NCBI GenBank assembly: GCA_965612865.1
Contig: CBFDTJ010000026.1
Location: forward strand, 1-18,186
Direction: 5' to 3'
Length of the DNA: 18,186 bases
Source: an uncultured bacterium
Lineage (GTDB): Bacteria; Caldisericota; Caldisericia; B22-G15
Part shown: positions 73-17,202 of the stretch, in pieces
Layout of the letters: each line of letters starts with the position of its first letter
Position numbering within the stretch: position 1 is the first letter of the stretch
Notes under the pieces: model-generated
The model's database searches: none
What the model was told of the DNA's origin: nothing
The model's input: only the letters and a program-made list of their open reading frames with translations
Program-made: the position numbers and the translations under genes

Positions 73-1201
73 AGAACCGGGAAAGGTTGTTCCAAATAGA
101 AATGCATTTAGAAAGTGGGGAGCGTGGATAAATGCTTACACTGCAAAGAAGTATAATAGACCTTTGTTTATAGCCATGTCTGCTGACCTTGCTGAATCCA
201 CAAGAATTGATGGCTTTGCAAGGCCCTTTGGTGATTTTCCCGGTTATGGATGGTATGATAAGGAGAAAAATCCTGATGGAGTCTTACTTCCCCAGGAGAT
301 TACAGAGTTTGTAAATTCTGGTATTTGTGCAGGCATTGAAACTGTTAATGTGGCTAAGGACCCCTATAAAGAATTTGTTGGATTTTATTCCACATCATCT
401 ACCTATGGTTCCTTTGCATATCTGAAATACGGTATGATGAGACTGTTCTCACAGCTTGCCCAGGATTGTCCATTAAAAGTTGGAAAAGTTATATGGGTTG
501 CAGGTCACTCTGGACCAGAGACAGCAGATGACTCAAGAACGCATTTTGGAATATTTGCTCCTTATGTGGGAAAACTATTCCCAAGAGGTCAGGTGATAAA
601 CCTGCATCCATGGGAATACAATGAGGTTCCTGTGGTTCTTGGGAGAGCGCTGAAGGAGGATGCACCAATAATTGTGCTTCATCTTACAAGGCCGGGAATT
701 CCCATACCTGATAGAGAAAAACTTGGTATACCAAGCCATTTTGAGGCGGCACATGGCGCATACATCTTGAGAGATTACAAAAAAGACCTTCCAGAGATGG
801 GGACTGTTATTGTTCAGGGAACAAGCTCCACCCTCGGTGTTGTTAAGATACTACCAAAACTTGATGAACTTGGATTAAATGTAAAAATAGTGGCAGCCAT
901 AAGCTACGAGTTATTTATGAAAGAACCCAAGGATTATAGAAACAAAGTCTTACCTCTCTCACACTGGAGAGATTCAATGGTTATAACCAGCGAGGCTTTA
1001 AGAAACATGAGTGACTGGTTGTTCAGTAAGGTGAGTGAAGAATACTCAATGTCCTCTGATTGGGATAACAGATGGAGAACCGGTGGTACAGTTGATGATG
1101 TGCTTGAGGAAGCTCACTTAACGCCAGATTACATACTTGAACGAATTAAAAAGTTTGCTTTAGAAAAAGATAAAAGATTAAAGAAGCTCTCAGAAATGTG
1201 A
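73..1201 (+). CDS. Transketolase family protein, pyrimidine-binding and C-terminal domains (5'-truncated)
   Basis: Motifs MSADLAEST, EITEF, STYGSF, HSGPETADDSRTH and LHLTRP align by eye with transketolase SADL / E / TF / H-x-G-x3-G-E-D-G-x-T-H / L-x-R motifs. ORF start MPSLVGSEMCIRD is translated adapter. Stop TGA 1199-1201. Confidence 0.85.
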
Positions 1202-1202
1202 T

Positions 1203-1236
1203 AAAAGGGAGGCTTCTGCCTCCCTTTTTATTTTTT
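1203..1236. terminator. Bidirectional rho-independent terminator between convergent transketolase and Mo-hydroxylase genes
   Basis: AAAAGGGAGGC-ttct-GCCTCCCTTTT is a perfect 11-bp stem with A-tract before and T-tracts after. It lies between the stops at 1201 and 1235. Confidence 0.9.
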
Positions 1237-3565
1237 ATACCCTTTCCTTTAAAAGTTTAAATACCCTTTCTGGAGTAAATGGTGCTTCTTTCAACCTAAT
1301 CCCTACCGCGTCATACACTGCATTGGAAATTGAGGGTAATGCACCATTTATATTTACCTCTGCAACGGACTTTGCTCCAAATGGTCCGGTAGGTTCATAG
1401 GTTGGAACAAACTTTACCACAATTTCTGGTAGGTCAAGAGATGTGAAGATTTTATAGTCAAAGAATGTGGGATTTGTTGATGAACCTGTTCTTGTGAATT
1501 TTAATTCCTCAGTTAAGGCGTATCCGAGACCGTTAACTATTGCTCCCATAGCCTGACCTCTTGCAAGTTTTGGATGTATAACAACTCCAGCATCTATAAC
1601 TGCCACATACTTCACCGGTATAATCTTTCCAGTTTCTGTATCCACATCAACGAGAACAAAGTGAGCGGCAAATGGAGGAGGGGATTTGGGAGAAACATGA
1701 GATCCTACTCCTATCAGGTGTTCCTGCTTCTCCTCATAATAACTCTTAAGTCCTATCTCTTTGTATGTTATACTCTTTCCACTCTTTTTGCTTATGACAG
1801 TTGAATCCATAATATAAAGATTATCTGGATCCTCTTTGAGTAATTTCGCCGCATAATTTATGATCTTGGTCTTTAGGTCTTTAGCGGCCTTTAGGACAGC
1901 TCCACCAGAAATGTAGGTGGTACTTGATGCGTATGCGCCAGTATCAAAAGGAGTGAAATCTGTATCTGATGAATAAACAAAGAAGTTCCTGTAATCTGTC
2001 TTTAATTCCTCTGCTGCAATCTGTGCAAGAACTGTATCTGAACCTGTTCCTATATCTGTTGCACCTGCAAAGAGCTGAAAACTTCCATCGTCGTTCATTC
2101 TTATTTCACAGGATGCCATATCTATTAAAGGTATACCAGATCCCTGCATGAGTATAGCCATACCCACTCCTCTAATGTATGATCCTTTTTTAACTTTCTT
2201 GTTTCTCCATCTATCCCATTCTATCTCCTTCTTTCCTATTTCAATACATTTATCCAGAGCACAGCTTTCAATGATTTGAGGTATTCCCTCCCTGCCTTCT
2301 CCGAGTTTTTCAAATATGGGAGATGTTTCACCCTCTTTTATGTGATTTCTCTTTCTAAATTCCACTGGATCAATACCCATTTTTTCGCTAAGTTCATCTA
2401 TGGCAGTTTCAAGAGCAAAATAAGCCTGAGTTGCACCATATCCTCTGTATGCGCCAGCAATGGGAAGGTTGGTGTACACTGCATCTCCAACAAATCTTAC
2501 ATTCTTTGCCTTGTTGTATATGGGAAGAGACTTGCTGCCAACATTAAATAGAACAGTAGGTCCATGTGTACCATAGGCTCCTGTGTTTAAAACAACTTTC
2601 ATGTCTATTCCTGTAAGGATACCTGAGGAGTCAGCGCCAAGTCTTATGTAAATCTTTGATGGATGTCGTGTTCTTGCGGAAACAAACTCCTCTCTTCTTG
2701 TATATTCCATCCTTACAGGTCTTTTTGTTCTTAATGTCATAAGAGCGCATATATCCTCAAGCACTATCTCCTGTTTTGTGCCAAACCCTCCACCAATTCG
2801 AGGTTTAACGACCCTTATGTTGTTGATGGAAATTCCAAGTATCTGTGAAATTATTCTTCTTACATGGAAAGGAACCTGAGTTGCGCTTCTTATCACCAGT
2901 CTATTATTTTCGTCAAGATATGTTATGGTTACATGTGTTTCCATGGGCACATGCTGAGCATACTGGGTTTTTGTATAGTATCCTTCAATTTTAAAGTCTG
3001 CATTCTTTATGGCCTTATCAACGTCTCCTATCTCTATTTCAACATGTGAAACTATGTTTCTTTCCTTGTTGTAAATTCCAGTGCTTTCGTCTTCGTCATG
3101 AATAACTGGTGCACCTTCTTTCATTGCCTCCTCTGGATCAAAGACTGACGGTAAATTTTTGTATTTAACCTTTATAAGTTTCAGTGCCTCCTCGGCAATT
3201 TCTGGAGTTTCAGCACCCACAGCAGCAACCCTGTCACCTACAAATCTTACCTTCCTATCAAAGATAAAGGCGTCATAAGGTGATGGTTCTGGATAACCCT
3301 GACCGGCAGTGGTATGAGGTATCCTTGGAGTATTCTTGTATGTGAGAACTATTTTAACACCAGGGAGTTTTTCTGCCTCAGTTGTATCAATGTCAATTAT
3401 CTCTGCATGTGGAAAGGGACTGGTCAGAAGTTTTGCATGAATCATGTCAGGGAGATTGATGTCATCTGTGAAGAGTGGTTGTCCTGTGGCAAGGGCAAGC
3501 CCATCGTATTTCTCTACACTATCCCCTACAACTTTCAATTCTTCCTTTTTATCCTTTTTAGACAT
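1235..3565 (-). CDS. Xanthine dehydrogenase/aldehyde oxidoreductase family molybdopterin-binding large subunit (XdhA/XdhD-like)
   Basis: Motifs QHVPMET, GGGFGTKQ, GAYG, AYRGYGATQ, DIGTGSDT, YASSTT and GAKSVAE (catalytic Glu). Start reassigned to ATG 3565 (MSKKDKK) because AGGAGGA lies at 3571-3577 and it overlaps the upstream stop. Confidence 0.93.
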   Translation of the reverse strand: MSKKDKKEELKVVGDSVEKYDGLALATGQPLFTDDINLPDMIHAKLLTSPFPHAEIIDIDTTEAEKLPGVKIVLTYKNTPRIPHTTAGQGYPEPSPYDAFIFDRKVRFVGDRVAAVGAETPEIAEEALKLIKVKYKNLPSVFDPEEAMKEGAPVIHDEDESTGIYNKERNIVSHVEIEIGDVDKAIKNADFKIEGYYTKTQYAQHVPMETHVTITYLDENNRLVIRSATQVPFHVRRIISQILGISINNIRVVKPRIGGGFGTKQEIVLEDICALMTLRTKRPVRMEYTRREEFVSARTRHPSKIYIRLGADSSGILTGIDMKVVLNTGAYGTHGPTVLFNVGSKSLPIYNKAKNVRFVGDAVYTNLPIAGAYRGYGATQAYFALETAIDELSEKMGIDPVEFRKRNHIKEGETSPIFEKLGEGREGIPQIIESCALDKCIEIGKKEIEWDRWRNKKVKKGSYIRGVGMAILMQGSGIPLIDMASCEIRMNDDGSFQLFAGATDIGTGSDTVLAQIAAEELKTDYRNFFVYSSDTDFTPFDTGAYASSTTYISGGAVLKAAKDLKTKIINYAAKLLKEDPDNLYIMDSTVISKKSGKSITYKEIGLKSYYEEKQEHLIGVGSHVSPKSPPPFAAHFVLVDVDTETGKIIPVKYVAVIDAGVVIHPKLARGQAMGAIVNGLGYALTEELKFTRTGSSTNPTFFDYKIFTSLDLPEIVVKFVPTYEPTGPFGAKSVAEVNINGALPSISNAVYDAVGIRLKEAPFTPERVFKLLKERV

Positions 3566-4034
3566 TTTCTTCCTCCTTGAGCAACTTGATAGCTTTTTCA
3601 ACAGCTTCTATCTGCTGAACATAACCTGTGCATCTGCAAAGATGTCCTGAAAGAGCCTTTTTAATATCCTCCCTTGTGGGATCTGGATTTTCATCAAGTA
3701 GCGCTTTCATGGATAGTATTATTCCAGGAATGCAGTAGCCACATTGCACGGCGCCTTCTTCCACGAAGCTTTTCTGTAGTGGATGTGGTTTCTCCATATC
3801 TCCTATTCCTTTGATTGTGATAACGCTTCTATCTTTAACTCTTCCTGCAAGTATAGTGCATGAAGGAACAGGTACTCCATCAAGTAGAACTGTACAAGCA
3901 CCACACTCACCTGTCTTGCAGTTGTTTCCTTTAACTTCTGTGTGTCCATTCCTCCTTAGAAGTTCAAATAGTGATTCTCCAGGGTAGGCATCAAATTCAA
4001 CATATTCGCCATTTAATTTAAACTTTATCTTCAT
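3558..4034 (-). CDS. 2x[2Fe-2S] small subunit of Mo-hydroxylase (CoxS/XdhC-type)
   Basis: CKTGECGAC...C and QCGYC...CRCTGY cysteine motifs. Start overlaps the upstream stop (ATGA). Confidence 0.95.
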   Translation of the reverse strand: MKIKFKLNGEYVEFDAYPGESLFELLRRNGHTEVKGNNCKTGECGACTVLLDGVPVPSCTILAGRVKDRSVITIKGIGDMEKPHPLQKSFVEEGAVQCGYCIPGIILSMKALLDENPDPTREDIKKALSGHLCRCTGYVQQIEAVEKAIKLLKEEENV

Positions 4035-4879
4035 ATTTCCTCCCTTATGCTCATCAGATTCCTGTTGGTTAAAACCCCGCTTAATTCTCTTCTGTAATCT
4101 CCTGATATCCTCATGTCATCTGCCACTTTTACAGTTTCCATCACAAGTTCCTTTGCTTTTCCTATAACTTCATCTGTGAGCGTCTTACCGAGTAAGAAAT
4201 CCTCAACATCTTCCATCCTTATAGGACCAAAGGGTCTTGCGCCGATGACAACTATTGCATCTTCCACCTTCTTCTCTTTGTCAAATTTCAAAAGCATACC
4301 CTCATCTAATAGTGGAATATCTGCGCTTGTCCTGGTGAATCTTATATATGAAAAATGGTATGATGGATCAAACTTGTCTATCCTTACTTCCTTTATTATG
4401 GCTTCGTCCAGGAATTCCTCAATTTCAACCCGCATAAATTCTGAAAGTTTCATTTCCTTTTCTTCCCCTGTAAATATAACAAGTGATGCATCAAGGGTTA
4501 AAAGAATTGCAGTAATATCTGACCACGGATAGTTTCTTGCCACACTTCCACCAAAACTTATTACATTTCTTATAATGGGAGTTGCAATCTCAGAGAAAAC
4601 TTTCGTTAGTTTGCCTTTAAATAACTTCCCAACCACTAAGGACTTTTGAGCTTCACCGATGGTAGTTTTAGCACCAATCTTTATCCTTTTCTCATCTTCC
4701 TCTATATAGGAGAGACCAAGATTTTCAAGATCTATAAGGCATTCAACACTTTTCGGACTCCTCCATATGATGTCAAGTCCACCTCCCACAACTCTTGCAG
4801 ATTTACCCTTCTTTTTGAGCAAATCTAAAGCCTCGTTTAAAGACTCTGGATAAAGATACTCCTTTACATTTTTTAACAT
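4031..4879 (-). CDS. FAD-binding medium subunit of Mo-hydroxylase (CoxM/XdhB/YgfM-like)
   Basis: YLYPESLNEAL, VGGGLD, IGAKTT, IRN..FGGS, SD...L..LDA and DDMRISGDYRR motifs. SD AAGGAGGAA upstream. Confidence 0.9.
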   Translation of the reverse strand: MLKNVKEYLYPESLNEALDLLKKKGKSARVVGGGLDIIWRSPKSVECLIDLENLGLSYIEEDEKRIKIGAKTTIGEAQKSLVVGKLFKGKLTKVFSEIATPIIRNVISFGGSVARNYPWSDITAILLTLDASLVIFTGEEKEMKLSEFMRVEIEEFLDEAIIKEVRIDKFDPSYHFSYIRFTRTSADIPLLDEGMLLKFDKEKKVEDAIVVIGARPFGPIRMEDVEDFLLGKTLTDEVIGKAKELVMETVKVADDMRISGDYRRELSGVLTNRNLMSIREEI

Positions 4880-5796
4880 TCTTCCTCCTTTCTCTTCATA
4901 AACTCATAAATCTCTCCTTTAGAAGGTATGTATACCCCGAGTTTTGTTGTAGATAAAGCTCCAGATAGGTTTGCGAACTCAAGTGAATCCTTCAGGTTAG
5001 CTGATTCAAGATACTTGTATACAAAAGATGCATTAAAGACATCCCCTGCTCCTGTAGTATCCACTGATTTTACCGGTATTCCAGAGAAGACTATTTTTTC
5101 TTCCTGTGTAATCAACATTGCACCCTTTTCACCCATTTTAATTACAAAAAACTTTCCTTCATCTATAAGTTTATACTTAAATTCCTCCTTAATCAAAGAA
5201 AACTCCCTTAAATTTGAAAAAATTACATTGCTTCTCTCCATAAGATAATAAACTGCATCGATAAATCCATCTATTTCCTCCCCTATTCTTATCTGTGTGT
5301 CAAAAAATACCCTTATCTCTTTTTTGCTTATGAAATCAACTACTTCTCTTAACCTTTTCTGGGAAGCTTTACTTGTTAAAATTCCTCCTGAGATATACAC
5401 AGCTGAAAGGCTTGAAAAGTTTATCTCTTTCAGTTTTCCAACATTTATTTCTTCGTATGATACATCTTTAATGCCAGCAAATGTTGTTCTCTCCCCCTGT
5501 TCGTTTACTATAGCTACAATAAGTGCCGTTTTTTTATTTACTCTGTCAATAAAATCTTTCCGAACTTTGAAAAAATCAAGATGTTTCTCAATAATGGATG
5601 AGAAGGTATCGTTCCCTAAAGGAGTGAAATAAAAAACTTCGTATCCAAGATTGGAAAGTGCACAGGAAAAATTAACACCTGTGCCAGCAGGTGTAACCTT
5701 TATATCCTCTGGAACTATATTTTTGTCCCTCTCAAACTGAAAATTTCCTTTTATAGTGATGTCAACGCAGTTATCACCAATCACTAAAATTTGCAT
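4873..5796 (-). CDS. PfkB/ribokinase-family carbohydrate kinase
   Basis: IGDNCVD N-terminus, AGTGVNFSCALSNLG (PfkB signature 1), GND.F, GERT, NLRE (NxxE), K.GEKGA, DTTGAGDVF (signature 2 with catalytic Asp). Confidence 0.93.
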   Translation of the reverse strand: MQILVIGDNCVDITIKGNFQFERDKNIVPEDIKVTPAGTGVNFSCALSNLGYEVFYFTPLGNDTFSSIIEKHLDFFKVRKDFIDRVNKKTALIVAIVNEQGERTTFAGIKDVSYEEINVGKLKEINFSSLSAVYISGGILTSKASQKRLREVVDFISKKEIRVFFDTQIRIGEEIDGFIDAVYYLMERSNVIFSNLREFSLIKEEFKYKLIDEGKFFVIKMGEKGAMLITQEEKIVFSGIPVKSVDTTGAGDVFNASFVYKYLESANLKDSLEFANLSGALSTTKLGVYIPSKGEIYEFMKRKEEEC

Positions 5797-6455
5797 TCTC
5801 TCACCCTCTTAACAAAAAGCTCCACCTTTTTAATATCTTTCCTTCCATTACCTTCTGGAATGTCAAGAGAAGTTTTTGCATCAACTCCAGATGGCTTTAC
5901 CCTTTTTATAGCTTTGCATACATTCTCAGGCGAGAGGCCTCCTCCAAGAATAACAGGTTTTTTTACACTCTCAACGATTTTTCTACTTATATTCCAGTCA
6001 TGGGTCTTTCCTGTAGCACCAATAAAACCAGGCATCTGCTTACTCTCTCCAGGCGTATCAAGAATAAAGGAATCCACAAGGTCATCAAACAAGATAGCCT
6101 TCTCTATGGATTCCTCTCCTGAAACAGGTATAGCGAGAAGTATCTTACTCTTTACACTCTCTCTAAGTTTAATGAGGTATTCTCTCTCCACCTCGTAGCA
6201 TATGTGTAAGTAATCTGGTTTTATAAGCTCTATAGCAGGAACTATCTCCTCTATCTCCTTCACATCAAGGATAAGGCTTGTTTCTCTCCCCTGTTCTCTT
6301 ATGGAACTTATAAGTTCCTTTGCCTTCATGTAAGAGACAATTCCTTTCTCTACATCTCCATTTTTTGAGGTTACAATCCCCAATCTGTCCACTCCAAGCT
6401 CACACAATTTTTCTGCATCATGTAGATTGTTTATTGCGTAAATTTGAATTAACAT
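5784..6455 (-). CDS. Phosphoribosylanthranilate-isomerase-like (TrpF-fold) TIM-barrel protein, divergent paralog
   Basis: TrpF-type motifs ILDT, GATGKTHDW, ILGGGLSPENV, P.GVD and G.KD..K...F. The N-terminal KICG catalytic motif reads QIYA. No other trp gene is in the window. Confidence 0.85.
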   Translation of the reverse strand: MLIQIYAINNLHDAEKLCELGVDRLGIVTSKNGDVEKGIVSYMKAKELISSIREQGRETSLILDVKEIEEIVPAIELIKPDYLHICYEVEREYLIKLRESVKSKILLAIPVSGEESIEKAILFDDLVDSFILDTPGESKQMPGFIGATGKTHDWNISRKIVESVKKPVILGGGLSPENVCKAIKRVKPSGVDAKTSLDIPEGNGRKDIKKVELFVKRVRECKF

Positions 6456-6464
6456 AACAATTCT

Positions 6465-6494
6465 ATTTTAAGGCGTAGCCGTTACCCTTGTCAA
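6465..6494 (-). promoter_or_regulatory. Sigma70-type promoter for the trpF-like/pfkB/xdh operon (TTGACA-18-TAAAAT)
   Basis: Minus strand TTGACA (6494-6489), 18-nt spacer, TAAAAT (6470-6465), 9 nt before the ATG at 6455. Confidence 0.7.
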
Positions 6495-6504
6495 TTTTTA
6501 AATC

Positions 6505-6534
6505 TTGACAAGGAAAGTCAAGGAATTATAAAAT
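6505..6534 (+). promoter_or_regulatory. Sigma70-type promoter for the ABC transporter operon (TTGACA-18-TAAAAT)
   Basis: TTGACA 6505-6510 and TAAAAT 6529-6534 (alternative TATAAA 6527-6532). SD AAGGAGGTG precedes ATG 6567. Confidence 0.7.
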
Positions 6535-6566
6535 GGAAATTAGTAAAACAATCAAGGAGGTGTTAA

Positions 6567-7772
6567 ATGAAAAAAATTGGTGGGATTCTGGCAATCTTGA
6601 TGATTGTCCTCCTCCTATTTACTTCCTTTGCCATTTCATGCGCCCCCAAGGAAGAGAAACCACAAGAACAGCAACCGGCAGAAACCCAGGAGAAGAAAAT
6701 TAAAGCAGGTTTTATCTATGTTGGACCAATAGGAGATTATGGATGGACAAATGCCCACGATGTTGGAAGGAAGTATGTAGAGGAAAAATTCCCGTGGCTT
6801 GAGACAGTTTATGTTGAGTCAGTTCCAGAAGGTGATGCCGCAAGAGTTATTGACAGATTGATAAACGAAGAGAAATGCAATGTTATCTTCACAACAAGTT
6901 TTGGTTACATGGATGACACTATTAAAGCTGCAGAGAAATATCCAGATGTAATATTTGAGCATTGTTCTGGTTATAAGAGAGCAAAGAATTCAGGCACTTA
7001 CTTTGCTGAGCTTTATCAGATGTACTATCTTAATGGTTTGATGGCAGGAGCTCTAACAAAGACAAATAAAGTTGGATATGTTGGCGCTCACCCAATACCT
7101 GAAGTTGTAAGACACATAAATGCTTATGCTCTTGGTGTAAAAGAGGTGAATCCAGATGCAAAGGTTTATGTAAGATGGCTGTTCTCATGGTATGATCCAG
7201 CAAAGGCAAGAGAAGCTGCTGAGTCATTAATAGCTGAGGGTGTAGATTGTCTTGCCTTTACAGAGGATTCAACAGCTGTCATTGAAGTTGGACAGGAACA
7301 CACAAAGAAAGGACAGCAGATATACACATTCTCTCACTACAGTCCTATGCAGAAGTTTGGACCAGATACAGTGGTCTCCGGTCAGCTGGTGGACTGGGGA
7401 ATAATGTACGAGGAAATCTTAAGAAGAGTATATACAAACACATGGGATAATAGAGATTATTGGTGGCTTGCAAAAGAGGGAGCATGCGAACTTGGAGGCG
7501 AATTTGGCACTCCAATAAATCCAAAGTTCATAGATGAACTTAAATCAAAGATGGTAAAGGATCCAATACTTGGTGAGATAAGTGTGTATGATCTAATTAT
7601 GAAGAGATTAGAACAGATGAAGGAGCCAACAATTCTATTTGATCCATTCACCGGACCAATTTATGATCAAAATGGCACAATGAGGCTCAAACCAGGAGAA
7701 AGAGGAAGCCACGATCTTTTGTGGAGCATAGATTGGTTTGTTGATAATGTAGAGGGAGAGATTCCAAAGTAG
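6567..7772 (+). CDS. BMP-family (PnrA/Med-like) ABC transporter substrate-binding lipoprotein, nucleoside/nucleobase type
   Basis: Signal peptide MKK-hydrophobic with lipobox-like AISC (Cys25). Motifs GFIYVGPIGDYGW, IFTTSFGY, YL.G..AG..TKTN.VG, IPEV.R.INAYALG and WYDP.K. Strong SD. Confidence 0.93.
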   Translation: MKKIGGILAILMIVLLLFTSFAISCAPKEEKPQEQQPAETQEKKIKAGFIYVGPIGDYGWTNAHDVGRKYVEEKFPWLETVYVESVPEGDAARVIDRLINEEKCNVIFTTSFGYMDDTIKAAEKYPDVIFEHCSGYKRAKNSGTYFAELYQMYYLNGLMAGALTKTNKVGYVGAHPIPEVVRHINAYALGVKEVNPDAKVYVRWLFSWYDPAKAREAAESLIAEGVDCLAFTEDSTAVIEVGQEHTKKGQQIYTFSHYSPMQKFGPDTVVSGQLVDWGIMYEEILRRVYTNTWDNRDYWWLAKEGACELGGEFGTPINPKFIDELKSKMVKDPILGEISVYDLIMKRLEQMKEPTILFDPFTGPIYDQNGTMRLKPGERGSHDLLWSIDWFVDNVEGEIPK

Positions 7773-7790
7773 CCAGTGGATATTATATAC

Positions 7791-7817
7791 AAAGAGGGGG
7801 GAATTCTCCCCCTCTTT
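7791..7817 (+). terminator. Stem-loop after the binding-protein gene (partial terminator or mRNA stabiliser)
   Basis: AAAGAGGGGG-gaattct-CCCCCTCTTT is a perfect 10-bp stem followed by AGTATTTTT. Confidence 0.75.
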
Positions 7818-7842
7818 AGTATTTTTATAAAAGGGGTGAGAT

Positions 7843-9414
7843 TTGAAGCCAAAGAGAAGGAATACACTTCATTCTCAGGGGGGTAAAAAAATAGAATTAC
7901 TGGAGATGAAAAATATCTATAAAAAGTTTCCTGGAGTCATAGCCAATGACAATGTAAACCTTGATGTAGAAGGTGGAGAGATACACGCACTTCTTGGGGA
8001 GAATGGGGCTGGTAAGACAACTTTGATGAACATCCTCTATGGAATTTATCAGCCTGATAGGGGAGAAATTTATATAAACGGAAAGAAGGTAACCATAAGA
8101 TCCCCAAGAGATGCAATAGAACTTGGAATAGGTATGGTCCATCAACATTTTATGCTTATTCCAACTCATACAGTGGCAGAAAACATATCCCTGGGGTTTA
8201 AAGAAGCTCCTTTCTTCTATCCCACAAGAGTTATTGAGGAAAGAATATGTGATTTTACAGATAGGTATGGACTTAAAATAAATCCAAGAGCAAAAATATT
8301 GCAGCTTTCTGCTGGAGAACAGCAGAGGGTAGAGATTATAAAGACTCTCTTCAGAGGTGCAAGCCTGCTTATCCTTGATGAGCCGACTTCTGTTCTTACT
8401 CCTCAGGAGACAGAGGAGCTTTTCTCAATACTCAAAAGACTGGTGGAGGAAAAACATTCTGTAATCTTCATTACCCACAAACTTGAGGAGGTTATGGAGA
8501 TAAGTGACAGAGTTACAGTTTTAAGAAAGGGAAAGGTTATTGCCACAGTAAAAACAAAGGATACCAGCAAGAAAGAGCTTGCAAGAATGATGGTTGGAAG
8601 AGAGGTTATTTTTCAGCTTGAGAGGAAAAAAATAGAAAAGGGTGAGGAGGTTCTTAAAGTTAAAGATCTCTTTGTAGAAAACGACAGGGGTCTTATGGCT
8701 GTTAAGGGAGTTTCCTTTAACGTTCATAAAAATGAAATTTTTGGAATTGCTGGAGTTGCTGGAAACGGTCAGAGAGAGCTGGTGGAAGCAATAACAGGAT
8801 TGAGAAGAGTAAAGAGTGGGAAAGCGGAAATTCTGAATGTTGATGTTACAAACTCTTCTCCAAAAAGAATTGGAGATATAGGCGTTGCACATATCCCTGA
8901 AGAGAGAATTAGATTTGGAATAGTTCCCAATTTATCTGTATACGAAAATGCAGTTCTACGAGACTATTACCATGAACCATTCTCAAAGGGTTCATTCCTT
9001 AATTATCCCTATATAAAAGAACACACTAAAAAGCTTGTAAGGGAGTTCTCCATTGATACTCCCTCCATAGAAACTCCAGTGAAACTTCTATCAGGTGGAA
9101 ATATACAGAAGTTAATTCTTGCGAGGGAAATCTCTACAAAGTCAAATCTGATAATTGCTGCTCACCCCACCTATGGACTTGATGTTGCAGCAACAGAGTA
9201 TATAAGAAAACTGCTTTTAAAAAAGCGAGAGGAGGGTGCAGCTATTCTTCTTGTCTCGGAGGATTTAGAAGAGATATTTGAACTGAGTGACAGGATTGCA
9301 GTAATGTTTGAGGGGAAGTTTATGGGTATCGCTCCAAGAGAGAAGACAAGTCTTCAGGACATAGGTTTAATGATGGCAGGTTCGAAGACATTGGAGGAAA
9401 AGGATGAAGATTAA
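7843..9414 (+). CDS. CUT2/nucleoside-type ABC transporter ATP-binding protein with two fused NBDs (start uncertain: TTG 7843, ATA 7891 or ATG 7906)
   Basis: Walker A GENGAGKTT, LSAGEQQR, ILDEPT and ITHKL. Second domain has degenerate GVAGNGQRE, LSGGNIQK and PTYGLD. Confidence 0.95.
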   Translation: MKPKRRNTLHSQGGKKIELLEMKNIYKKFPGVIANDNVNLDVEGGEIHALLGENGAGKTTLMNILYGIYQPDRGEIYINGKKVTIRSPRDAIELGIGMVHQHFMLIPTHTVAENISLGFKEAPFFYPTRVIEERICDFTDRYGLKINPRAKILQLSAGEQQRVEIIKTLFRGASLLILDEPTSVLTPQETEELFSILKRLVEEKHSVIFITHKLEEVMEISDRVTVLRKGKVIATVKTKDTSKKELARMMVGREVIFQLERKKIEKGEEVLKVKDLFVENDRGLMAVKGVSFNVHKNEIFGIAGVAGNGQRELVEAITGLRRVKSGKAEILNVDVTNSSPKRIGDIGVAHIPEERIRFGIVPNLSVYENAVLRDYYHEPFSKGSFLNYPYIKEHTKKLVREFSIDTPSIETPVKLLSGGNIQKLILAREISTKSNLIIAAHPTYGLDVAATEYIRKLLLKKREEGAAILLVSEDLEEIFELSDRIAVMFEGKFMGIAPREKTSLQDIGLMMAGSKTLEEKDED

Positions 9415-10471
9415 AGTAGAAAGAAGAGGTGAGATATCCCCCAAGAAAAGATTTGTATACCTTATTCTTTCTTTGATAATTGGTTTTCTCATTGGTGGTC
9501 TTATATTTCTGTTCAAAGGTATAAACCCCTTTTATGCTCTTCAAAAGATATTTGTGGGTTCCTTTGGAAGTATTTATGGATGGAAAGAGACAATAACAAA
9601 GGCAATTCCACTTATGCTCTGTGGTATAGGTCTTACCCTCGCTTTTAAAGGGAAATTCTGGAACATTGGAGCAGACGGTCAACTTTTGTTTGGTGCACTT
9701 CTTGCCACATGGATAGGGCTTTCACTTGGAAAGACATACCCTGCCTTTGTGGTTTTACCCCTCATGTTTGTTGGTGGATTTATATCAGGAGCTTTCTGGG
9801 GAATTATCCCGGCTATTATGAAGGTTAAACTGGGGATTAATGAAGTTATTACAACTCTCATGCTTAACTACATAGCTGAGCAATTTATACAGTATCTTGT
9901 TTATGGTCCATGGAAAGGAAAAACCCAGTATGGATTTCCGTACACAGACAACTTTTCAGCCTCAGCAACACTCCCTGTTATAAAAGGTACAAGGATTCAC
10001 TATCCAACACTTATTATAGGTATTATTCTTGCCATACTCATTTACATATTTATTATGAAAACAAAGACAGGATACGAAATCAGAGTTATAGGAGAGAATC
10101 CCGAGGCAGCAAAGTATGCCGGGATAAATTTTTTAAAAACAACTATAATAATGATGGCTATAAGCGGTGGAATTGCTGGACTCGCTGGTGTGGGAGAAGT
10201 TGCAGGGATCCATCATCATCTTACCACACCAACTCAGATATCTTCAGGCTATGGATATACAGCAATAATTGTAGCATGGCTTGCAAGGCTAAATCCTTTA
10301 GTGGTTATTCTTTCCTCTATATTTTTTGGTGGTATTCTTGTTGGAGGAGATACCATTCAAACATCCATGGGTCTTCCTTTTGCCACAATCAATATATTTA
10401 ACGGACTGATACTCATATCTGTTATATCCATCAATTTCTTCCTTGAGTATAAAATTTCAATTAAGAGGTGA
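9404..10471 (+). CDS. Nucleoside-type ABC transporter permease 1 (BPD_transp_2 family)
   Basis: Hydrophobic. Motifs WNIGADGQ, NEVITTLMLNY, GYEIRVIGENPEAAKYAGI and GYGYTAIIVAWLA. Overlaps the ATPase stop. Confidence 0.93.
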   Translation: MKIKVERRGEISPKKRFVYLILSLIIGFLIGGLIFLFKGINPFYALQKIFVGSFGSIYGWKETITKAIPLMLCGIGLTLAFKGKFWNIGADGQLLFGALLATWIGLSLGKTYPAFVVLPLMFVGGFISGAFWGIIPAIMKVKLGINEVITTLMLNYIAEQFIQYLVYGPWKGKTQYGFPYTDNFSASATLPVIKGTRIHYPTLIIGIILAILIYIFIMKTKTGYEIRVIGENPEAAKYAGINFLKTTIIMMAISGGIAGLAGVGEVAGIHHHLTTPTQISSGYGYTAIIVAWLARLNPLVVILSSIFFGGILVGGDTIQTSMGLPFATINIFNGLILISVISINFFLEYKISIKR

Positions 10472-10475
10472 GAAA

Positions 10476-11408
10476 ATGGGAGGATATGAATTTTTAATTA
10501 TATCTGTTCTAAAAAGGACCCTTGTCGCGGGAACTCCGCTTCTTCTTGGAACACTTGGAGAGATATATGCAGAGAGATCTGGAGTTTTAAATCTTGGTGT
10601 TGAGGGCTTAATGGCTATCGGTGCAGTTTCAGGTTTTGGAGTGGCACTTGTTACTGGAAACCCATGGCTTGGACTGCTTGCTGCTGCAGTATTCGGTGCA
10701 ATTCTTTCTCTGGTTCATGCCTTTGTAAGTGTTACATTAAAGTCAAATCAAATTATATCTGGACTTGCCCTCACCATGCTTGGTCTTGGTATAAGCGGAC
10801 TCTGGGGAAAGGCATATATAGGTATTCCATTAACTACAAAATTTGAGTCAGTAAAGATACCAATACTCTCAAAGATTCCTTATGTGGGGGAGATTCTGTT
10901 TCATCAGGATCCAATATTTTACATATCTGTCATAGCTGGAATTGTTATGTGGTTTATCCTTTTTAAAACAGAGGTGGGAATAAATATAAGGTCTGTGGGG
11001 GAGAATCCTCTTGCTGCAGATGCCATGGGAGTAAATGTTTATAAGACAAGGTATGTGTGTGTTATTATCGGCGGAGTGCTTGCAGGTGTTGCAGGAGCGC
11101 ACCTATCCCTTGCCTACATACCTTCGTGGATAGAGGGTATGACGGGAGGTAGAGGATGGATAGTGATAGCTCTCACAATATTTGCACTCTGGAATCCTTT
11201 GAGAGCTATGCTTGGAGCCTATCTATTTGGTGGAATTTATGTATTGCAATACCTCCTTCAACCTATAGGGATACCACCAAACATTCTTCTTATGTTCCCG
11301 TATCTTGCAACGCTTTTTGTCCTTCTCGTAAGCGCGCAGGAGACATTTAGGAAGAGAATGGGAGCTCCCAGGTCTCTGGGTGTTCCCTATGACAAAGAAG
11401 AGAAGTGA
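10476..11408 (+). CDS. Nucleoside-type ABC transporter permease 2
   Basis: TPLLLGTLGE..ERSGVLNLGVEG, IRSVGENP.AA..MGVNV, GRGWI and P..LG.PY motifs. Start reassigned to ATG 10476 (SD GAGGTG 10465-10470). Confidence 0.93.
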   Translation: MGGYEFLIISVLKRTLVAGTPLLLGTLGEIYAERSGVLNLGVEGLMAIGAVSGFGVALVTGNPWLGLLAAAVFGAILSLVHAFVSVTLKSNQIISGLALTMLGLGISGLWGKAYIGIPLTTKFESVKIPILSKIPYVGEILFHQDPIFYISVIAGIVMWFILFKTEVGINIRSVGENPLAADAMGVNVYKTRYVCVIIGGVLAGVAGAHLSLAYIPSWIEGMTGGRGWIVIALTIFALWNPLRAMLGAYLFGGIYVLQYLLQPIGIPPNILLMFPYLATLFVLLVSAQETFRKRMGAPRSLGVPYDKEEK

Positions 11409-11914
11409 AGTAGTTTGATGGAGGCGGCAGAGAATAAGTAAACAAAAATTCCCTTGACAAAATCAAGGGGTAGAAATGGCAAAGAGCCTATTAAAAATGC
11501 CTTTGATAGGCTAATTTTCAAATTAAAAGATAAATAAGTAATCCCCAGAAGATGAATTTCCAGTATGGCTAAGATGATTCCAAATATAAGAAGTTTTTTA
11601 TTTTTTCTGTTTAGGGAACCTATAACAACAGGGGCAATTAAAAATCCGAGAAGATAGCCACCTGTTGGGCCAAGGAGGGCAGACAGACCAGCCTGCCCTC
11701 CTGCAAATACAGGAAAACCAAGAATCCCTAAAATTTCATACATTAAAACTGATAGAAAACCAAAGTATGGCCCCAGCATAACTCCTGACAGGAGAACAAA
11801 GAACAGCTGAAGGGTTAGTGGAACAGGGGTAAAGGGAAAGGGGATGGAGATGTAGGAGCCAATTACTATAAGAATGGAGAAAAGTGAGGAGAAAACGAGA
11901 TTCCTTAACTTCAT
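11387..11914 (-). CDS. bioY: Biotin transporter BioY (ECF S-component)
   Basis: PVPLTLQ, G.PVFAGG..G, GPTGGYLLGF and PF..D..K motifs. About 6 TM segments. Lies directly downstream of a biotin-dependent decarboxylase. Confidence 0.92.
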   Translation of the reverse strand: MKLRNLVFSSLFSILIVIGSYISIPFPFTPVPLTLQLFFVLLSGVMLGPYFGFLSVLMYEILGILGFPVFAGGQAGLSALLGPTGGYLLGFLIAPVVIGSLNRKNKKLLIFGIILAILEIHLLGITYLSFNLKISLSKAFLIGSLPFLPLDFVKGIFVYLFSAASIKLLHFSSLS

Positions 11915-11917
11915 ATA

Positions 11918-13051
11918 TTAATGTCCAAGAAGGGTTATCATAACTCCAGCAACTACAGCAGTTCCTATAACTCCAGCAACATTAGGACCCATAGCGTGCA
12001 TTAAGAGGAAGTTTCCAGGGTTCTCCTCCTGTCCAACTCTCTGAGAAACTCTTGCAGCCATAGGTACTGCAGATACACCTGCTGAACCAATGAGAGGATT
12101 TACCTTTCCTCCAGTTACCCAGTAGAACACTTTTCCAAGCAGGACTCCTCCTGCTGTTCCTCCTATGAAGGCAACGAGTCCAAGAACTATAATTCCTATG
12201 GTTTTTGCAGTTAAGAACCTTTCGGCAGTCATTGTGGAGCCAACAGTGGTGGCAAGAAATATGGTTACGATGTTTATAAGTTCGTTTGCAGCAGTATTTT
12301 TCAGTCTTTCCACCACACCGCTCTCTCTAAACAGATTTCCAAGCATAAGCATTCCAATTATTGGTGCCACTGCAGGGAAGAGCAAACTTATAACTATGGT
12401 AACCACTATAGGGAAGAGTATCTTTTCTGTCTTTGAAACAGGTCTTAACTGTTCCATAACAACAGTTCTTTCCTTTTTGGTTGTAAATAGTCTCATGATA
12501 GGAGGTTGAATGAGGGGAACGAGGGACATATAAGTGTACGCAGCAACTGCTATAGGACCGAGAAGATGGGGGGCGAGTTTTACCGCAGTATAAATCGATG
12601 TTGGTCCATCTGCTCCTCCTATTATTCCAATGGATGCTGCTTCCATCATGTTGAAGCCAAGAAGTAATGCTATTATCAGGGCAATAAAAACTCCAATCTG
12701 TGCTGCTGCACCGAGAAGTATGGTCCATGGATTTGCAATAAGAGGTCCAAAGTCTGTCATGGCTCCAATCCCCATAAATATAAGTAGCGGGAATATTTCA
12801 GTTTCTATTCCAGCTTTGTAGAGATAATAGAACAGACCGCCTGGATGAATTCCATGAGGTTCAGAGATTAACCCTGCAAGGGGAAGATTTGCAAGTATAC
12901 AGCCAAACCCTATGGGCATAAGTAAAAGAGGCTCGAACTTTTTCGCTATTGCAAGATAGATAAGAAAAGCCCCAACTCCAATCATTATCAATTCTCCCCA
13001 GGTCAGGGAGAGAACTCCACTCATGGAGAGAAGGCTTCCTAATGAGCCCAT
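11918..13051 (-). CDS. mmdB: Na+-translocating decarboxylase beta subunit (OadB/MmdB/GcdB family)
   Basis: [58 protein letters not shown] and [12 protein letters not shown] motifs. Confidence 0.95.
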
Positions 13052-13053
13052 TA

Positions 13054-13470
13054 TTAGCCTCCAATCTCTATTTCAACTAAAGGTTCTCCTGTTTCTACAT
13101 TCTGTCCAGTAGAAACATGAACGGCTTTAACAACTCCATCTTCTGCTGCAAATATTTCGTTTTCCATCTTCATGGCTTCAAGAACAAGGAGAATATCGCC
13201 TTTCTTTACTGCCTTTCCAGGAGATACATTGACGGTTAGTACCTTTCCCGGAAGTGGTGCAGATACAACAGTAACTCCTTCAGCTACCTTTACCTTTTTG
13301 GTTTCTTTCTTTACAGGCTGGGCTGGTGGGGGAGTGGAGACTGGAACAGTTGGAACTTCCCTTTTGACCTCCTTTACCTCTTTTACCTGGGGAGTCTTTG
13401 ACTCTCCTATTTCTTCAACAATAACTTCAAAAGTTTCTCCATCTACAGTTACTCTAAACTTTTTAGCCAT
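13054..13470 (-). CDS. mmdC: Biotin carboxyl carrier (gamma) subunit of Na+-translocating decarboxylase
   Basis: EAMKMENEI biotinylation motif, Pro-rich linker and N-terminal FRVTVDG. Start reassigned to ATG 13470 (SD AGGTGGA; overlaps upstream stop). Confidence 0.92.
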
Positions 13471-13834
13471 TCTTCCACCTCTTTGTTTTAATTTTTGAAG
13501 ATACTTTTCTTCCAACTATCTCTTTCACTCTCCAGAAATTTAGACCTTCACCAGTGGGTCCTATAAATCTTGTCTTTACTTCTTCATAAGCTGAAAGTGC
13601 TGCAGCAATTGCAGCTATTTTTCTTAATTTACTTCTCTTATCCTCTTTCTCTTTCTTTGGAGCTAAAACAGGACCTGTCTGTTTAACTTCTTCCTTTCCC
13701 CCTTCCTTTTCTGGATGATAGAAGATTAATTTGAACATTACCAGCACGAAACCAAGAAAAGCAAGTACTCCAAATACTATTGCTACTGCTACAATTGTGA
13801 ATTTTAGACCTTCCCATATAGAAGTTATCTCCAT
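13463..13834 (-). CDS. mmdD: OadG/MmdD-family membrane anchor (delta) subunit
   Basis: Single N-terminal TM with IVF.VL..L, charged linker, IAAIAAAL motif and C-terminal W...GR. Lies between the alpha and gamma genes. SD AGGAGGA. Confidence 0.85.
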   Translation of the reverse strand: MEITSIWEGLKFTIVAVAIVFGVLAFLGFVLVMFKLIFYHPEKEGGKEEVKQTGPVLAPKKEKEDKRSKLRKIAAIAAALSAYEEVKTRFIGPTGEGLNFWRVKEIVGRKVSSKIKTKRWKNG

Positions 13835-13843
13835 CTTTTCCTC

Positions 13844-15391
13844 CTAAAGAGGCATATTTCCATGTTTTTTCTCTGGTAAGCTTTCGCTCTTACTTCTTAA
13901 GAAATCAAGTGCTTCTGCTATTTTCTTTCTTGTAAATTTTGGATCTATAACATCATCAATGTATCCTCTCTCAGCTGCCCTGTAAGGATTTGCGAACATA
14001 TCTCTAAACTCTTTAATCTTTTCCTTTCTCATCTCTTCGGGATTCTCTGCTGCCTTTATGTCTTTTCTGAAGATTATCTCAGCTGCTCCCTCTGCTCCCA
14101 TAACTGCAATCTCTGCTGTGGGATAGGCATAGACAACATCAGCACCAAGATGACGGGAACACATGGCAATGTATGCTCCTCCATAGGCTTTTCTTAAGAT
14201 AACTGTAATCTTTGGAACTGTGGCTTCTGAATAGGCATAGAGAAGTTTTGCTCCGTGTCTTATAACTCCTCCGTGTTCCTGATTTACTCCCGGGAGATAA
14301 CCAGGGGTATCTGTGAATGTAACAAGGGGAATGTTAAATGAATCACAGAATCTCACGAATCTTGCAGCTTTATCAGATGAATTTATATCAAGAACTCCTG
14401 CAAGATACTTTGCCTGATTTGCGACAATTCCAACGCTTCTTCCACCGATTCTTGCGAATCCAACAACAATGTTTGGAGCGTATAGAGCATGAACTTCAAG
14501 GAACTCTCCGTTGTCAACTACTCTTCTTATAATGTCCTTAACATCGTAAGATTTTGATGGATCTGTTGGAACTATATCTCTTAATTCATCATCTGCTCTA
14601 TCAATGGGATCGTCTGTTTCAACCATGGCCGGCTCCTGAAGGTAGTTATCTGGAATGTAAGATAGAAGTCTCTTTGTAATTTCTATGGCATCTTCATCAG
14701 TCTTTGCAAGGAAATGAGCATTACCACTTCTCTGGTTGTGGACAAGTCCACCACCAAGTCCTTCGTGACTTATCTCCTCTCCTGTCACTGCTTTGACAAC
14801 ATTTGGTCCTGTGATATACATTGTTGCCTTCTCTGTCATAATTATGAAATCCATAATTGCCGGGGAATAAACTGCTCCTCCAGCTGTAGGTCCCATATTG
14901 ATGGATATCTGTGGGATAACTCCGGATGCTCTTGTGTTTCTGAAGAATATTTCTCCGTACCCAAAGAGTGAGTCAACACCTTCCTGGATTCTTGCTCCAC
15001 CAGAGTCGTTCATACCAATAAATGGAATTCCAAGTTTCATTGCAAGGTCCTGCATCTTTACTATTTTCAATGCGTGCATTTCACCAAGAGATCCACCAAG
15101 TGTTGTAAAATCCTGAGCATAGAGAGCTACTCTTCTTCCATTGACAGTTGCCACACCTGTTATGATTCCATCTCTTGGAATAAACATTTTGTCAAGACCA
15201 AAGTAGGTGCTTCTTGTTTTTACAAATTCTCCAAACTCTGTGAAGGAGCCGGGATCAACGAGGAGTTCAATTCTTTCCCATGCAGTTAATTTTCCTTTCT
15301 TGTGCTGTTTCTCAACCTTTTCAGGGCCTCCACCCTCTTCTATTTTCTTCCGCTTCTCCTCCAGCTCTTTCAAAAGATCTTTACTTTCCAT
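13844..15391 (-). CDS. mmdA: Acyl-CoA carboxyltransferase; methylmalonyl-CoA decarboxylase alpha subunit-like
   Basis: GKLTA.ERI..L.DPGSF, GGSLGE, DSGGARIQEG, GGAVYSPA, KAARFVRFCD, QEHGG.IRHGAK, KAYGGAY and KKHGN.PL motifs. SD AGGAGGT. Confidence 0.92.
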   Translation of the reverse strand: MESKDLLKELEEKRKKIEEGGGPEKVEKQHKKGKLTAWERIELLVDPGSFTEFGEFVKTRSTYFGLDKMFIPRDGIITGVATVNGRRVALYAQDFTTLGGSLGEMHALKIVKMQDLAMKLGIPFIGMNDSGGARIQEGVDSLFGYGEIFFRNTRASGVIPQISINMGPTAGGAVYSPAIMDFIIMTEKATMYITGPNVVKAVTGEEISHEGLGGGLVHNQRSGNAHFLAKTDEDAIEITKRLLSYIPDNYLQEPAMVETDDPIDRADDELRDIVPTDPSKSYDVKDIIRRVVDNGEFLEVHALYAPNIVVGFARIGGRSVGIVANQAKYLAGVLDINSSDKAARFVRFCDSFNIPLVTFTDTPGYLPGVNQEHGGVIRHGAKLLYAYSEATVPKITVILRKAYGGAYIAMCSRHLGADVVYAYPTAEIAVMGAEGAAEIIFRKDIKAAENPEEMRKEKIKEFRDMFANPYRAAERGYIDDVIDPKFTRKKIAEALDFLRSKSESLPEKKHGNMPL

Positions 15392-15479: not shown

Positions 15480-15508
15480 ATTATATCAGAGTTTTCTTTC
15501 AAATGGAA
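15480..15508 (-). promoter_or_regulatory. Putative promoter of the mmd-bioY operon overlapping the gatA stop
   Basis: Minus strand TTCCAT-17 nt-TATAAT, with the gatA stop TGA supplying an extended -10 (TGaTATAAT). Confidence 0.55.
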
Positions 15509-16907: not shown

Positions 16908-17202
16908 CTTTCTTCTCTATAATCTTTGGAACTTTTACAAACTCTTTTTCAAAGAATGGAGAAATCTTTTCTAAAACTTCCCTATCAAACCACTTTTTAG
17001 ATTCATCTTTTCTTAAGGAAAGTTTTTGTAATGGAGGATGAAACATGGGTTCCACATTGCTCGTATCTATTTCGTTTATTGACTTAAAGTGGGAGAGAAC
17101 CTGGTTTAACTGAGGAATTAACTCCTCTTTTTCTTCTTCTGATAGAGATAGTCTTGAAAGGTTCAATATTTTATTGACAGTCTTTTTGTCTATAATTCTC
17201 AT
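16894..17202 (-). CDS. gatC: Asp/Glu-tRNA amidotransferase subunit C
   Basis: 102 aa with LSRL.L..EE, I.EIDT.NVEP, LR.D and F.KVPKII motifs. Overlaps the gatA start. Confidence 0.92.
   Translation of the reverse strand: MRIIDKKTVNKILNLSRLSLSEEEKEELIPQLNQVLSHFKSINEIDTSNVEPMFHPPLQKLSLRKDESKKWFDREVLEKISPFFEKEFVKVPKIIEKKDETI

Follow-up and report, generated by a model that had tools for sequence, protein, structure and literature searches.

Gene content of the locus and nature of the TrpF-like protein

This work deals with a TrpF-like gene and a PfkB kinase gene, which are the conserved core of a locus on contig CBFDTJ010000026.1 of an uncultured member of the Caldisericota (B22-G15; assembly GCA_965612865.1, here G000, with a genome of 1.42 Mb that is 87.6% complete). 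The whole contig of 18,186 nucleotides (nt) was analyzed and is referred to as the window. Five minus-strand genes code for the TrpF-like protein (223 amino acyl residues, 5784-6455; PF00697, 63.7 bits), the PfkB kinase (4873-5796; PF00294, 133 bits, GAGD motif intact), and the FAD (xdhB, 4031-4879; PF00941 and PF03450), 2Fe-2S (xdhC, 3558-4034; PF01799 and PF00111), and molybdopterin (xdhA, 1235-3565) subunits of an XdhD/YgfM-type molybdenum (Mo) hydroxylase of the xanthine dehydrogenase (XDH) family. They overlap successively by 13, 7, 4, and 8 nt, the last overlap presupposing an ATG at position 3565 that is preceded by AGGAGG. On the plus strand, four genes encode an ATP-binding cassette (ABC) importer, i.e., a BMP-family binding lipoprotein, probably of the AtzT/3S99 purine-base type (6567-7772; PF02608), an ATPase with two ABC domains (7843-9414; PF00005 twice), and two permeases (9404-10471 and 10476-11408; both PF02653), the second of which has an ATG with Shine-Dalgarno sequence at 10476 within a longest open reading frame from 10443. 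A hairpin (7791-7817, plus strand) lies between the binding-protein and ATPase genes. The Pfam families at the locus are therefore PRAI, PfkB, FAD_binding_5, Fer2_2, MoCoBD, Bmp, ABC_tran, and twice BPD_transp_2, and no hydrolase or phosphorylase family was found among the 18 window proteins scanned with Pfam, as had been noted before.

The two operons diverge from a gap of 111 bp (6456-6566) with one promoter-like site of the form TTGACA-N18-TAAAAT for each, at 6465-6494 on the minus strand for the five-gene operon and at 6505-6534 on the plus strand for the importer, both with 11 of 12 matches. They are the top two among 20 promoter-like hits in 1100-11600, a total that is not above that of shuffled sequence (26.1), and both are conserved in G001 and G002 from the same genus. 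The arrangement of overlapping genes, gap, and facing promoters described in the original prediction is thereby confirmed. The trpF-like start codon lies 10 nt past the minus-strand site and lacks a Shine-Dalgarno sequence, so the transcript is probably near-leaderless. A TTGAC-N7-GTCAA repeat at the plus-strand promoter was rejected as an operator, being absent from G001.

The model of the TrpF-like protein (AlphaFold2, pLDDT 94.3) shows the (β/α)8 fold of TrpF, with 1dl3, 1lbm, and 1nsj as best matching folds (TM-score up to 0.83). It scores under every NCBIfam TrpF cut-off (at best 85.7 bits versus an equivalog cut-off of 215), has no match to PF04227 (PsuG, Indigoidine_A), and retrieves only phosphoribosylanthranilate isomerase (PRAI) clusters in an Atlas search. 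In TrpF, Cys7 on strand β1 acts as general base and Asp126 on strand β6 as general acid. Q4, Y6, and D133 of the window protein align with K5, C7, and D126 of Thermotoga maritima TrpF (1lbm), and Tyr replaces Cys7 throughout a subfamily that we call Q-x-Y, for which Q4, Y6, and H84 are specific and invariant. A single clade (33 rows, SH-aLRT 100) comprises the proteins with Gln4, Tyr6, His84, and Asp133; like all trees here, this one comes from a quick calculation with SH-aLRT as the sole support measure. One profile was built on an alignment mixing subfamilies, and its match totals are no count of Q-x-Y proteins.

The Q-x-Y protein is a retooled TrpF-derived enzyme and not an enzyme of the tryptophan pathway. 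Although it has the TrpF fold and is encoded by the sole PF00697 gene of G000, a function as working TrpF can hardly be maintained, as Cys7 is lost and no match for TrpC, TrpA, TrpD, or TrpE exists in this 87.6% complete genome, where the only trp-type matches are a TrpB-like protein (29%) and a glutamine amidotransferase. Among 93 Caldisericota genomes, 21 match the profile and one possesses TrpC, the latter carrying a canonical TrpF; TrpC is absent from every carrier of a Q-x-Y gene in the phylum. G093 and G096 possess canonical TrpFs (131-137 bits) alongside their Q-x-Y proteins (50-64 bits). The original prediction had named a working tryptophan enzyme as the finding that would undo it, and on this point it stands. 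TrpF relatives beside a methionine-salvage operon in G088 and G090 were dropped, as they are of the K-I-C type and convergent.

The kinase and barrel pair in other bacteria

Among 71 loci from GTDB genomes, a PfkB gene is adjacent on the same strand in 22 of 23 Q-x-Y loci versus none of 48 loci of other TrpF relatives, and the kinase lies beside the Q-x-Y gene in all 18 carriers of the Caldisericota families f1 and f2. The proposal of a recurrent pair of kinase and TIM barrel in nucleoside-catabolic settings is borne out by these counts, as is the expected recurrence with pfkB; the expected recurrence with xdh and BMP genes is limited to one genus. Importer, pair, and XDH genes occur together in three of the 18 carriers (G000, G001, and G002), and no XDH or BMP genes stand beside the pair in 14 wider f2 loci (three of them shorter than 6 kb; G033 was not read widely). 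In family f2, polX and uvrB, or else other housekeeping genes, flank the kinase gene, whether or not the barrel gene is present. All four loci read in the sister genus g2 have xdhB-xdhC(-xdhA) behind the kinase gene and lack the barrel gene, and at L227 the surroundings include a transketolase gene, rpe, and genes for ribokinase, a hydrolase, and a further importer of the BMP type. The orthologs are scattered in G016 (XdhA at 652, kinase at 675, psuG at 811, and binding protein at 880 kb), and importer and kinase are distant from each other in G016, G034, and G008. A single nine-gene route, as proposed originally, is not sustained by this distribution.

The partner kinases of Q-x-Y genes split into at least four clades. 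Sister TrpF paralogs (Q-x-A, and K-I-C with the THDW motif) occur without an adjacent kinase in Ignavibacteria and others (L024-L069; loci from the candidate phyla radiation are L022, L026, L028, L029, and L057), and some are fused to a PfkB (P0227), haloacid dehalogenase-type (HAD; P0269), methyltransferase (P0188), Maf (P0222), or binding-protein (P0259) domain. A weak search for longer fused forms (7998 candidates scored) turned up a single fusion, a K-I-C-type protein with a HAD domain, and P0227 was rejected as fusion evidence, because it belongs to the sister Q-x-A group.

In Lactobacillaceae, the Q-x-Y gene is present in 22 of 401 genomes and psuG in none of the 401. The usual gene order is a helix-turn-helix (HTH)-PfkB protein, PfkB, TrpF-like protein, YczE-like membrane protein, iron-type alcohol dehydrogenase (Fe-ADH), concentrative nucleoside transporter (CNT), small membrane protein, and RihA hydrolase, many operons being reduced to kinase, barrel, and Fe-ADH. 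In all 36 TrpF-like operons read (22 + 14), the Fe-ADH gene is at most two genes away and the metal ligands of its product are intact. No Fe-ADH was found within 13 kb at two kinase loci of the psuG type. The best structure match of the partner kinase is E. coli PsuK. For the kinase of locus L012, the best family is the pseudouridine kinase NF007355 with 202 bits, under the cut-off of 540, which is calibrated on close relatives of E. coli and passed by only one of 14 control genomes. Nine pseudouridine-binding or catalytic residues of E. coli PsuK are named in PMC9061257, and at these positions (14, 16, 30, 97, 112, 114, 143, 170, and 256) the partner kinases read NDSYNMNKD in eight of eight aligned sequences and in all 19 loci of an order-wide sample.

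This sample comprises 301 Lactobacillales genomes, 25 of which match the kinase profile; one with a pseudokinase alone was dropped. The remaining 24 genomes with an intact PsuK-type kinase include 17 with the TrpF-like gene only, five with psuG only (these were covered by a follow-up Q-x-Y search), two with both, each of which has two kinases, and none with neither. Fisher's test gives p 0.0005, which is descriptive only, as genomes were picked by kinase and relatives are not independent. The parallel with PsuK/PsuG that had been drawn originally is therefore closer than guessed, because here the TrpF-like gene directly follows a PsuK-type kinase gene where psuG is missing.

The HTH-PfkB protein (L012, 7629-8738, and relatives) retains the pocket for pseudouridine, whereas its catalytic Asp256 is replaced by Ala or Ser; judged from its residues, it is a candidate pseudokinase regulator that would sense pseudouridine. 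Two Lactobacillaceae (L162 and L163) have a second type of operon, which encodes a LacI-PfkB regulator, an energy-coupling factor transporter, TrpF-like protein, PfkB, HAD phosphatase, YqhD-like Fe-ADH, a major facilitator superfamily transporter, and a hydrolase; its kinase is different and its Fe-ADH unrelated to that of the main type. In two Lactobacillaceae (L158 and L159), the TrpF-like operon adjoins a RepA_N replication gene, which suggests a mobile location. An Epulonipiscium contig with the order kinase, TrpF-like gene, and Fe-ADH and no psuG found (L020) was rejected as an independent case, as it nests among Lactobacillales rows. For Lactobacillales, a 2'-O-methylribose route was abandoned, since the nucleobase-binding residues of PsuK are present in the kinase and the hydrolase is an ordinary RihA.

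Among the 93 Caldisericota genomes, the PsuK profile matches in none and psuG is present in 54; G000 has six PfkB genes, none of them PsuK-like. In families f3 and f7, a non-PsuK PfkB gene is adjacent to psuG in all 11 loci read, and these PfkBs, which are of two further types (L215-L218 and L220-L226), are candidates for independent pseudouridine kinases. In families f1 and f2, psuG is an orphan in nine of ten loci read, and in the tenth (L169) a kinase gene of the window clade lies directly behind psuG. This clade (14 rows, SH-aLRT 100) is separate from E. coli PsuK and occurs together with psuG in 33 of 35 f1/f2 genomes; both are absent from G012 (95% complete) and G018 (56%). As these genomes are close kin, the co-occurrence is a lead and not a statistic. 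The window kinase fails the uracil-binding triad Ser30/Asn143/Lys170 given in PMC9061257 and shares only the D-x-N flanking the Ser30 loop; from its phylogeny and gene context, it is a candidate non-canonical pseudouridine kinase of a Caldisericia-specific clade.

In G000, psuG is located at the end of a further BMP/ABC operon (contig C12, 5866-11855), which probably encodes a pseudouridine importer, and its product is more divergent (298 bits) than those of the f2 psuG genes (about 400). Contig C7 of the same genome carries two nucleoside hydrolase genes of the inosine-uridine type together with genes for ribokinase, a BMP importer, and a phosphorylase-like protein (11474-22225). In Anaerolineae, eight of 121 genomes possess a Q-x-Y gene and 92 of 121 possess psuG; neighbors of the Q-x-Y genes are hydrolases, BtpA, and other kinases. 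Tandem Q-x-Y pairs ahead of one kinase gene occur in two Anaerolineae (L303, 8244-9585; L305, 8573-9869), and BtpA and hydrolase genes lie upstream in L303 and L307.

The putative purine module and flanking genes

The second set of genes at the locus points elsewhere. The window binding protein matches the purine-bound structures 3s99 with 264 and 6pi5 with 252 bits, other BMP structures reaching at most 55 bits. The AtzT ligand residues listed in PMC6834077 are the Tyr45/Trp194 sandwich, Ser97, Glu165, Asn218, and Asn220; according to an alignment by eye, four of these six are retained in kind (Trp, Ser, Glu, and Trp), and Asn218 is replaced by Thr and Asn220 by Asp, the latter also being found in 3s99. 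The molybdopterin subunit, which keeps the C-terminal catalytic Glu, has E. coli XdhD as best match (39.7% identity, 563 bits, versus 34.4% and 450 bits for XdhA), and the best E. coli match of the FAD subunit is YgfM (58.5 bits, versus 50.8 for XdhB). The molybdopterin subunit scores below the curated cut-offs (652.5 versus 1101.9 for TIGR03313, which models a fusion with the Fe-S subunit that is separate in the window, and 709 versus 780 for NF043082), and on these similarities it probably is a purine oxidoreductase. G000 also encodes homologs of eight other members of the E. coli purine cluster (ssnA, ygeW, yqeA, hyuA, ygfK, guaD, yqeB, and mocA). Because of the putative purine-base pocket of the binding protein and the XdhD-like Mo enzyme, importer and Mo enzyme look like a separate purine module. 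That they serve the route of the pair, as the original prediction had it, is disfavored, since they are of purine type versus a pair pointing to a pyrimidine C-nucleoside. Three more XDH-family clusters exist in G000 (contigs C1, C3, and C9), the one on C3 beside a pair that, labeled by eye, is dihydropyrimidine dehydrogenase-like.

Convergent to xdhA, beyond a terminator-like hairpin at 1203-1228, the C-terminal half of a transketolase is encoded as a separate transcript (73-1201, plus strand; TIGR00232, 40 bits), which is truncated by the contig end and whose full-length ortholog in G002 has 766 residues. At the other side, a minus-strand operon mmdA-oadG-BCCP-oadB-bioY of the sodium-pumping methylmalonyl-CoA decarboxylase type (11387-15391) overlaps the end of the second permease gene convergently by 22 nt with the end of bioY and seems to be an unrelated neighbor as far as seen; gatC-gatA, with a DUF4349 gene upstream, follow at 15486-17202 on the minus strand. 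Both contig ends (1-72 and 18117-18186) are sequencing adapter, the open reading frames 32-1201 and 18185-17244 start within adapter-derived codons, and an adapter motif is close to an end in 80 of 111 contigs of G000.

Possible functions and relation to known systems

We see an even chance that the Q-x-Y protein represents a novel TrpF-derived enzyme whose substrate is pseudouridine 5'-phosphate (PsiMP) or a close C-nucleotide, and that two modules share the locus. A pseudouridine-type substrate is likely for the Lactobacillales enzymes, and for that of the window the arguments on either side are about balanced. The kinase would phosphorylate the O5' of pseudouridine or of one of its close isomers or derivatives, and the barrel would bind the 5'-phosphate. 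Asp133, the equivalent of TrpF Asp126, might then open the ribose ring to give an exocyclic C5=C1' acceptor, which is also an intermediate of PsuG. With Cys7 replaced by Tyr and the new invariant His84, a C-C bond would be broken without an Amadori proton shift; loss of the Cys7 base makes a classical TrpF-type Amadori step, as originally suggested, doubtful. Although on its own it is less likely than not, we tentatively prefer a C2'-C3' retro-aldol reaction, in which the uracil ring would serve as electron sink and glyceraldehyde 3-phosphate and (uracil-5-yl)acetaldehyde would be released, since it is the sole option explaining the invariant Fe-ADH, which in psuG-free Lactobacillales would reduce the aldehyde. 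Alternatively, hydration of the acceptor and subsequent cleavage might yield uracil and ribose 5-phosphate, or the ring might close again as the other anomer. According to PMC7722734, ring closure to PsiMP is an oxa-Michael step and ring opening its reverse, and the hydrolysis constant is 8.9e-5 M, far toward PsiMP; with such an equilibrium a pulled alternative route would make sense. The Mo enzyme of the window could dispose of the aldehyde, but it is not counted as support for the retro-aldol reaction because it is linked to the kinase and not to the barrel. In G000, psuG lies at another locus; PsuG probably shares the kinase, and the pair would operate in parallel with it. The second module would consist of the purine-base ABC importer and the XdhD-type Mo enzyme. 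Taken to its full extent, i.e., a second, PsuG-independent pseudouridine pathway of kinase, lyase splitting the ribose via the uracil electron sink, and Fe-ADH reduction or Mo-enzyme oxidation to an excreted uracil-C2 metabolite, together with a convergently evolved pseudouridine kinase in the window, this proposal is doubtful as a whole.

Several observations speak against a role in pseudouridine breakdown, above all in the lineage of the window. The window kinase is only 14% identical to PsuK and lacks Ser30 and Asn143, its closest folds are ribokinase-like, and fold and Atlas searches identify a generic PfkB. The co-occurrence of kinase and psuG comes down to close kin and two double absences, one of them in a genome that is 56% complete. 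All 18 f1/f2 carriers of the Q-x-Y gene also have psuG, so there is no pattern of psuG replacement in this lineage, and as the TrpF-like gene is also missing from 15 of the 33 genomes with kinase and psuG, the barrel seems to be a dispensable accessory there. Strict replacement of psuG everywhere was rejected, since both genes co-occur in Caldisericia and Anaerolineae, and the co-occurrence in Anaerolineae was itself rejected as evidence, because psuG is background in that class. Up to three Q-x-Y paralogs per genome in Anaerolineae suggest several substrates. The TrpF-like group of the window is not sister to that of Lactobacillales, the latter being on a long branch, and since the partner kinases also fall into separate clades, substrates may differ. 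Finally, no Fe-ADH gene lies beside the pair of the window.

In a possible, though on balance improbable, alternative, which the original prediction had left open, pseudouridine is a speciality of Lactobacillales and the enzyme in the lineage of the window acts on an N-linked or modified ribose phosphate, such as a phosphoribosyl-amine or a ring-opened or 2'-O-methylated nucleoside sugar. Kinase clade and TrpF-like group differ from those of Lactobacillales, nucleoside hydrolases adjoin the Anaerolineae copies, imine hydrolysis would be compatible with the missing Cys base, and a cluster of hydrolase, DERA-like aldolase, and ribokinase for 2'-O-methyl nucleosides is reported in PMC6278475. However, the window-type kinase tracks psuG and once lies directly behind it, these genomes would otherwise have no evident pseudouridine kinase, and the common set of Q4, Y6, H84, and D133 suggests one chemistry. 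If the substrate is PsiMP, the enzyme might be a second, unrelated C-glycosidase releasing uracil and ribose 5-phosphate, i.e., a non-orthologous replacement of PsuG. In Lactobacillales it fills the psuG slot behind a PsuK-type kinase and is complementary to psuG, the ring-opening Asp is retained, and transketolase, in the sister genus together with rpe and ribokinase, is nearby for using the pentose phosphate; we nevertheless consider this unlikely, as the invariant Fe-ADH is left unexplained, the activity would be redundant with psuG in all 18 f1/f2 carriers, and the subfamily-specific invariant residues Q4, Y6, and H84 do not include an additional Lys that could form a Schiff base.

Pseudouridine isomerizes spontaneously under heat, acid, or base, and one might think of an accessory isomerase that converts α-PsiMP, or another isomer refractory to PsuG, to β-PsiMP, or PsiMP to 1-deoxy-1-(uracil-5-yl)ribulose 5-phosphate for a dehydrogenase. 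The retention of the acid and loss of the base would suit ring opening without a proton shift, the co-occurrence with orphan psuG in Caldisericia and Anaerolineae matches, and BtpA, another barrel without an assigned function, clusters with the Q-x-Y gene; but an anomerase alone would be a dead end in the 17 psuG-free genomes and the Anaerolineae co-occurrence is background, which leaves this reading with little probability as well. Still less probable is the earlier single route, in which uptake by the importer would supply the kinase with its substrate and the product of the barrel would be oxidized by the Mo enzyme. It is true that in three of three genomes of the genus translational coupling links the five genes, whose divergent promoter region is shared with the importer, that the order kinase-xdhBCA is retained in the sister genus, and that a Mo hydroxylase could oxidize an aldehyde or a base. 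Against this, the arrangement is not conserved beyond the genus and its parts are dispersed in G016, G034, and G008, binding protein and Mo enzyme are of purine type, and XDH remains with the kinase where the TrpF-like gene is absent. A retooled barrel acting on PsiMP or a close C-nucleotide remains the best reading.

Pseudouridine is the commonest modified building block of RNA and resists ordinary nucleoside hydrolases and phosphorylases. No catabolic route for it besides PsuK/PsuG was encountered in the literature examined, nor any account of a pseudouridine kinase paired with a TrpF-like gene in the literature searched, which was mostly from outside subscription journals. The Q-x-Y family is probably a second enzyme family for pseudouridine-type C-nucleotides. 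If this is true, food and gut-type bacteria have a second solution to pseudouridine breakdown, probably with other products, a subfamily that databases label phosphoribosylanthranilate isomerase acquires a function and the TrpF scaffold a new reaction, and orphan psuG genes are explained via non-canonical kinases.

Among known systems, the purine module resembles E. coli YgfM-XdhD with its anaerobic purine cluster, XdhD being the best match and eight further cluster homologs being present in G000, although in contrast to XdhD the Fe-S subunit is separate and scores are below curated cut-offs; its binding protein also resembles the purine-binding proteins AtzT and 3S99, four of the six AtzT pocket residues being kept in kind according to the alignment by eye. 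The pair is similar to PsuK (PUKI)/PsuG (YeiN) in that a kinase is followed by a phosphate-dependent enzyme, and the Lactobacillales operons, with a kinase of PsuK residues, HTH-PfkB, CNT transporter, and Rih hydrolase, recall yeiI-nupX-rihB-yeiL-psuT-psuG-psuK of E. coli. In contrast to PsuK/PsuG, however, the second enzyme is a TrpF-fold barrel and not a PF04227 protein, psuG-free operons invariably include an Fe-ADH, and the window kinase is outside the PsuK clade. With TrpF of T. maritima (1nsj/1lbm), the Q-x-Y protein shares the fold, the position of Asp126, and the GG and β8 phosphate-site motifs, whereas K5 is replaced by Q, C7 by Y, and Q81 by H, the SPR arginine is absent, there are no trp genes, and it is tied to PfkB. 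Deoxyribose-phosphate aldolase (DERA) and the α subunit of tryptophan synthase (TrpA) are TIM-barrel retro-aldol enzymes that release glyceraldehyde 3-phosphate, and the dihydroxyacetone phosphate (DHAP) shunt includes the reduction of an aldehyde. The C-C cleavage of a pentose phosphate followed by redox disposal of a small aldehyde, as proposed here, would resemble these systems in chemistry, sequence lending no support to membership, with the uracil ring instead of a lysine Schiff base as the presumed electron sink.

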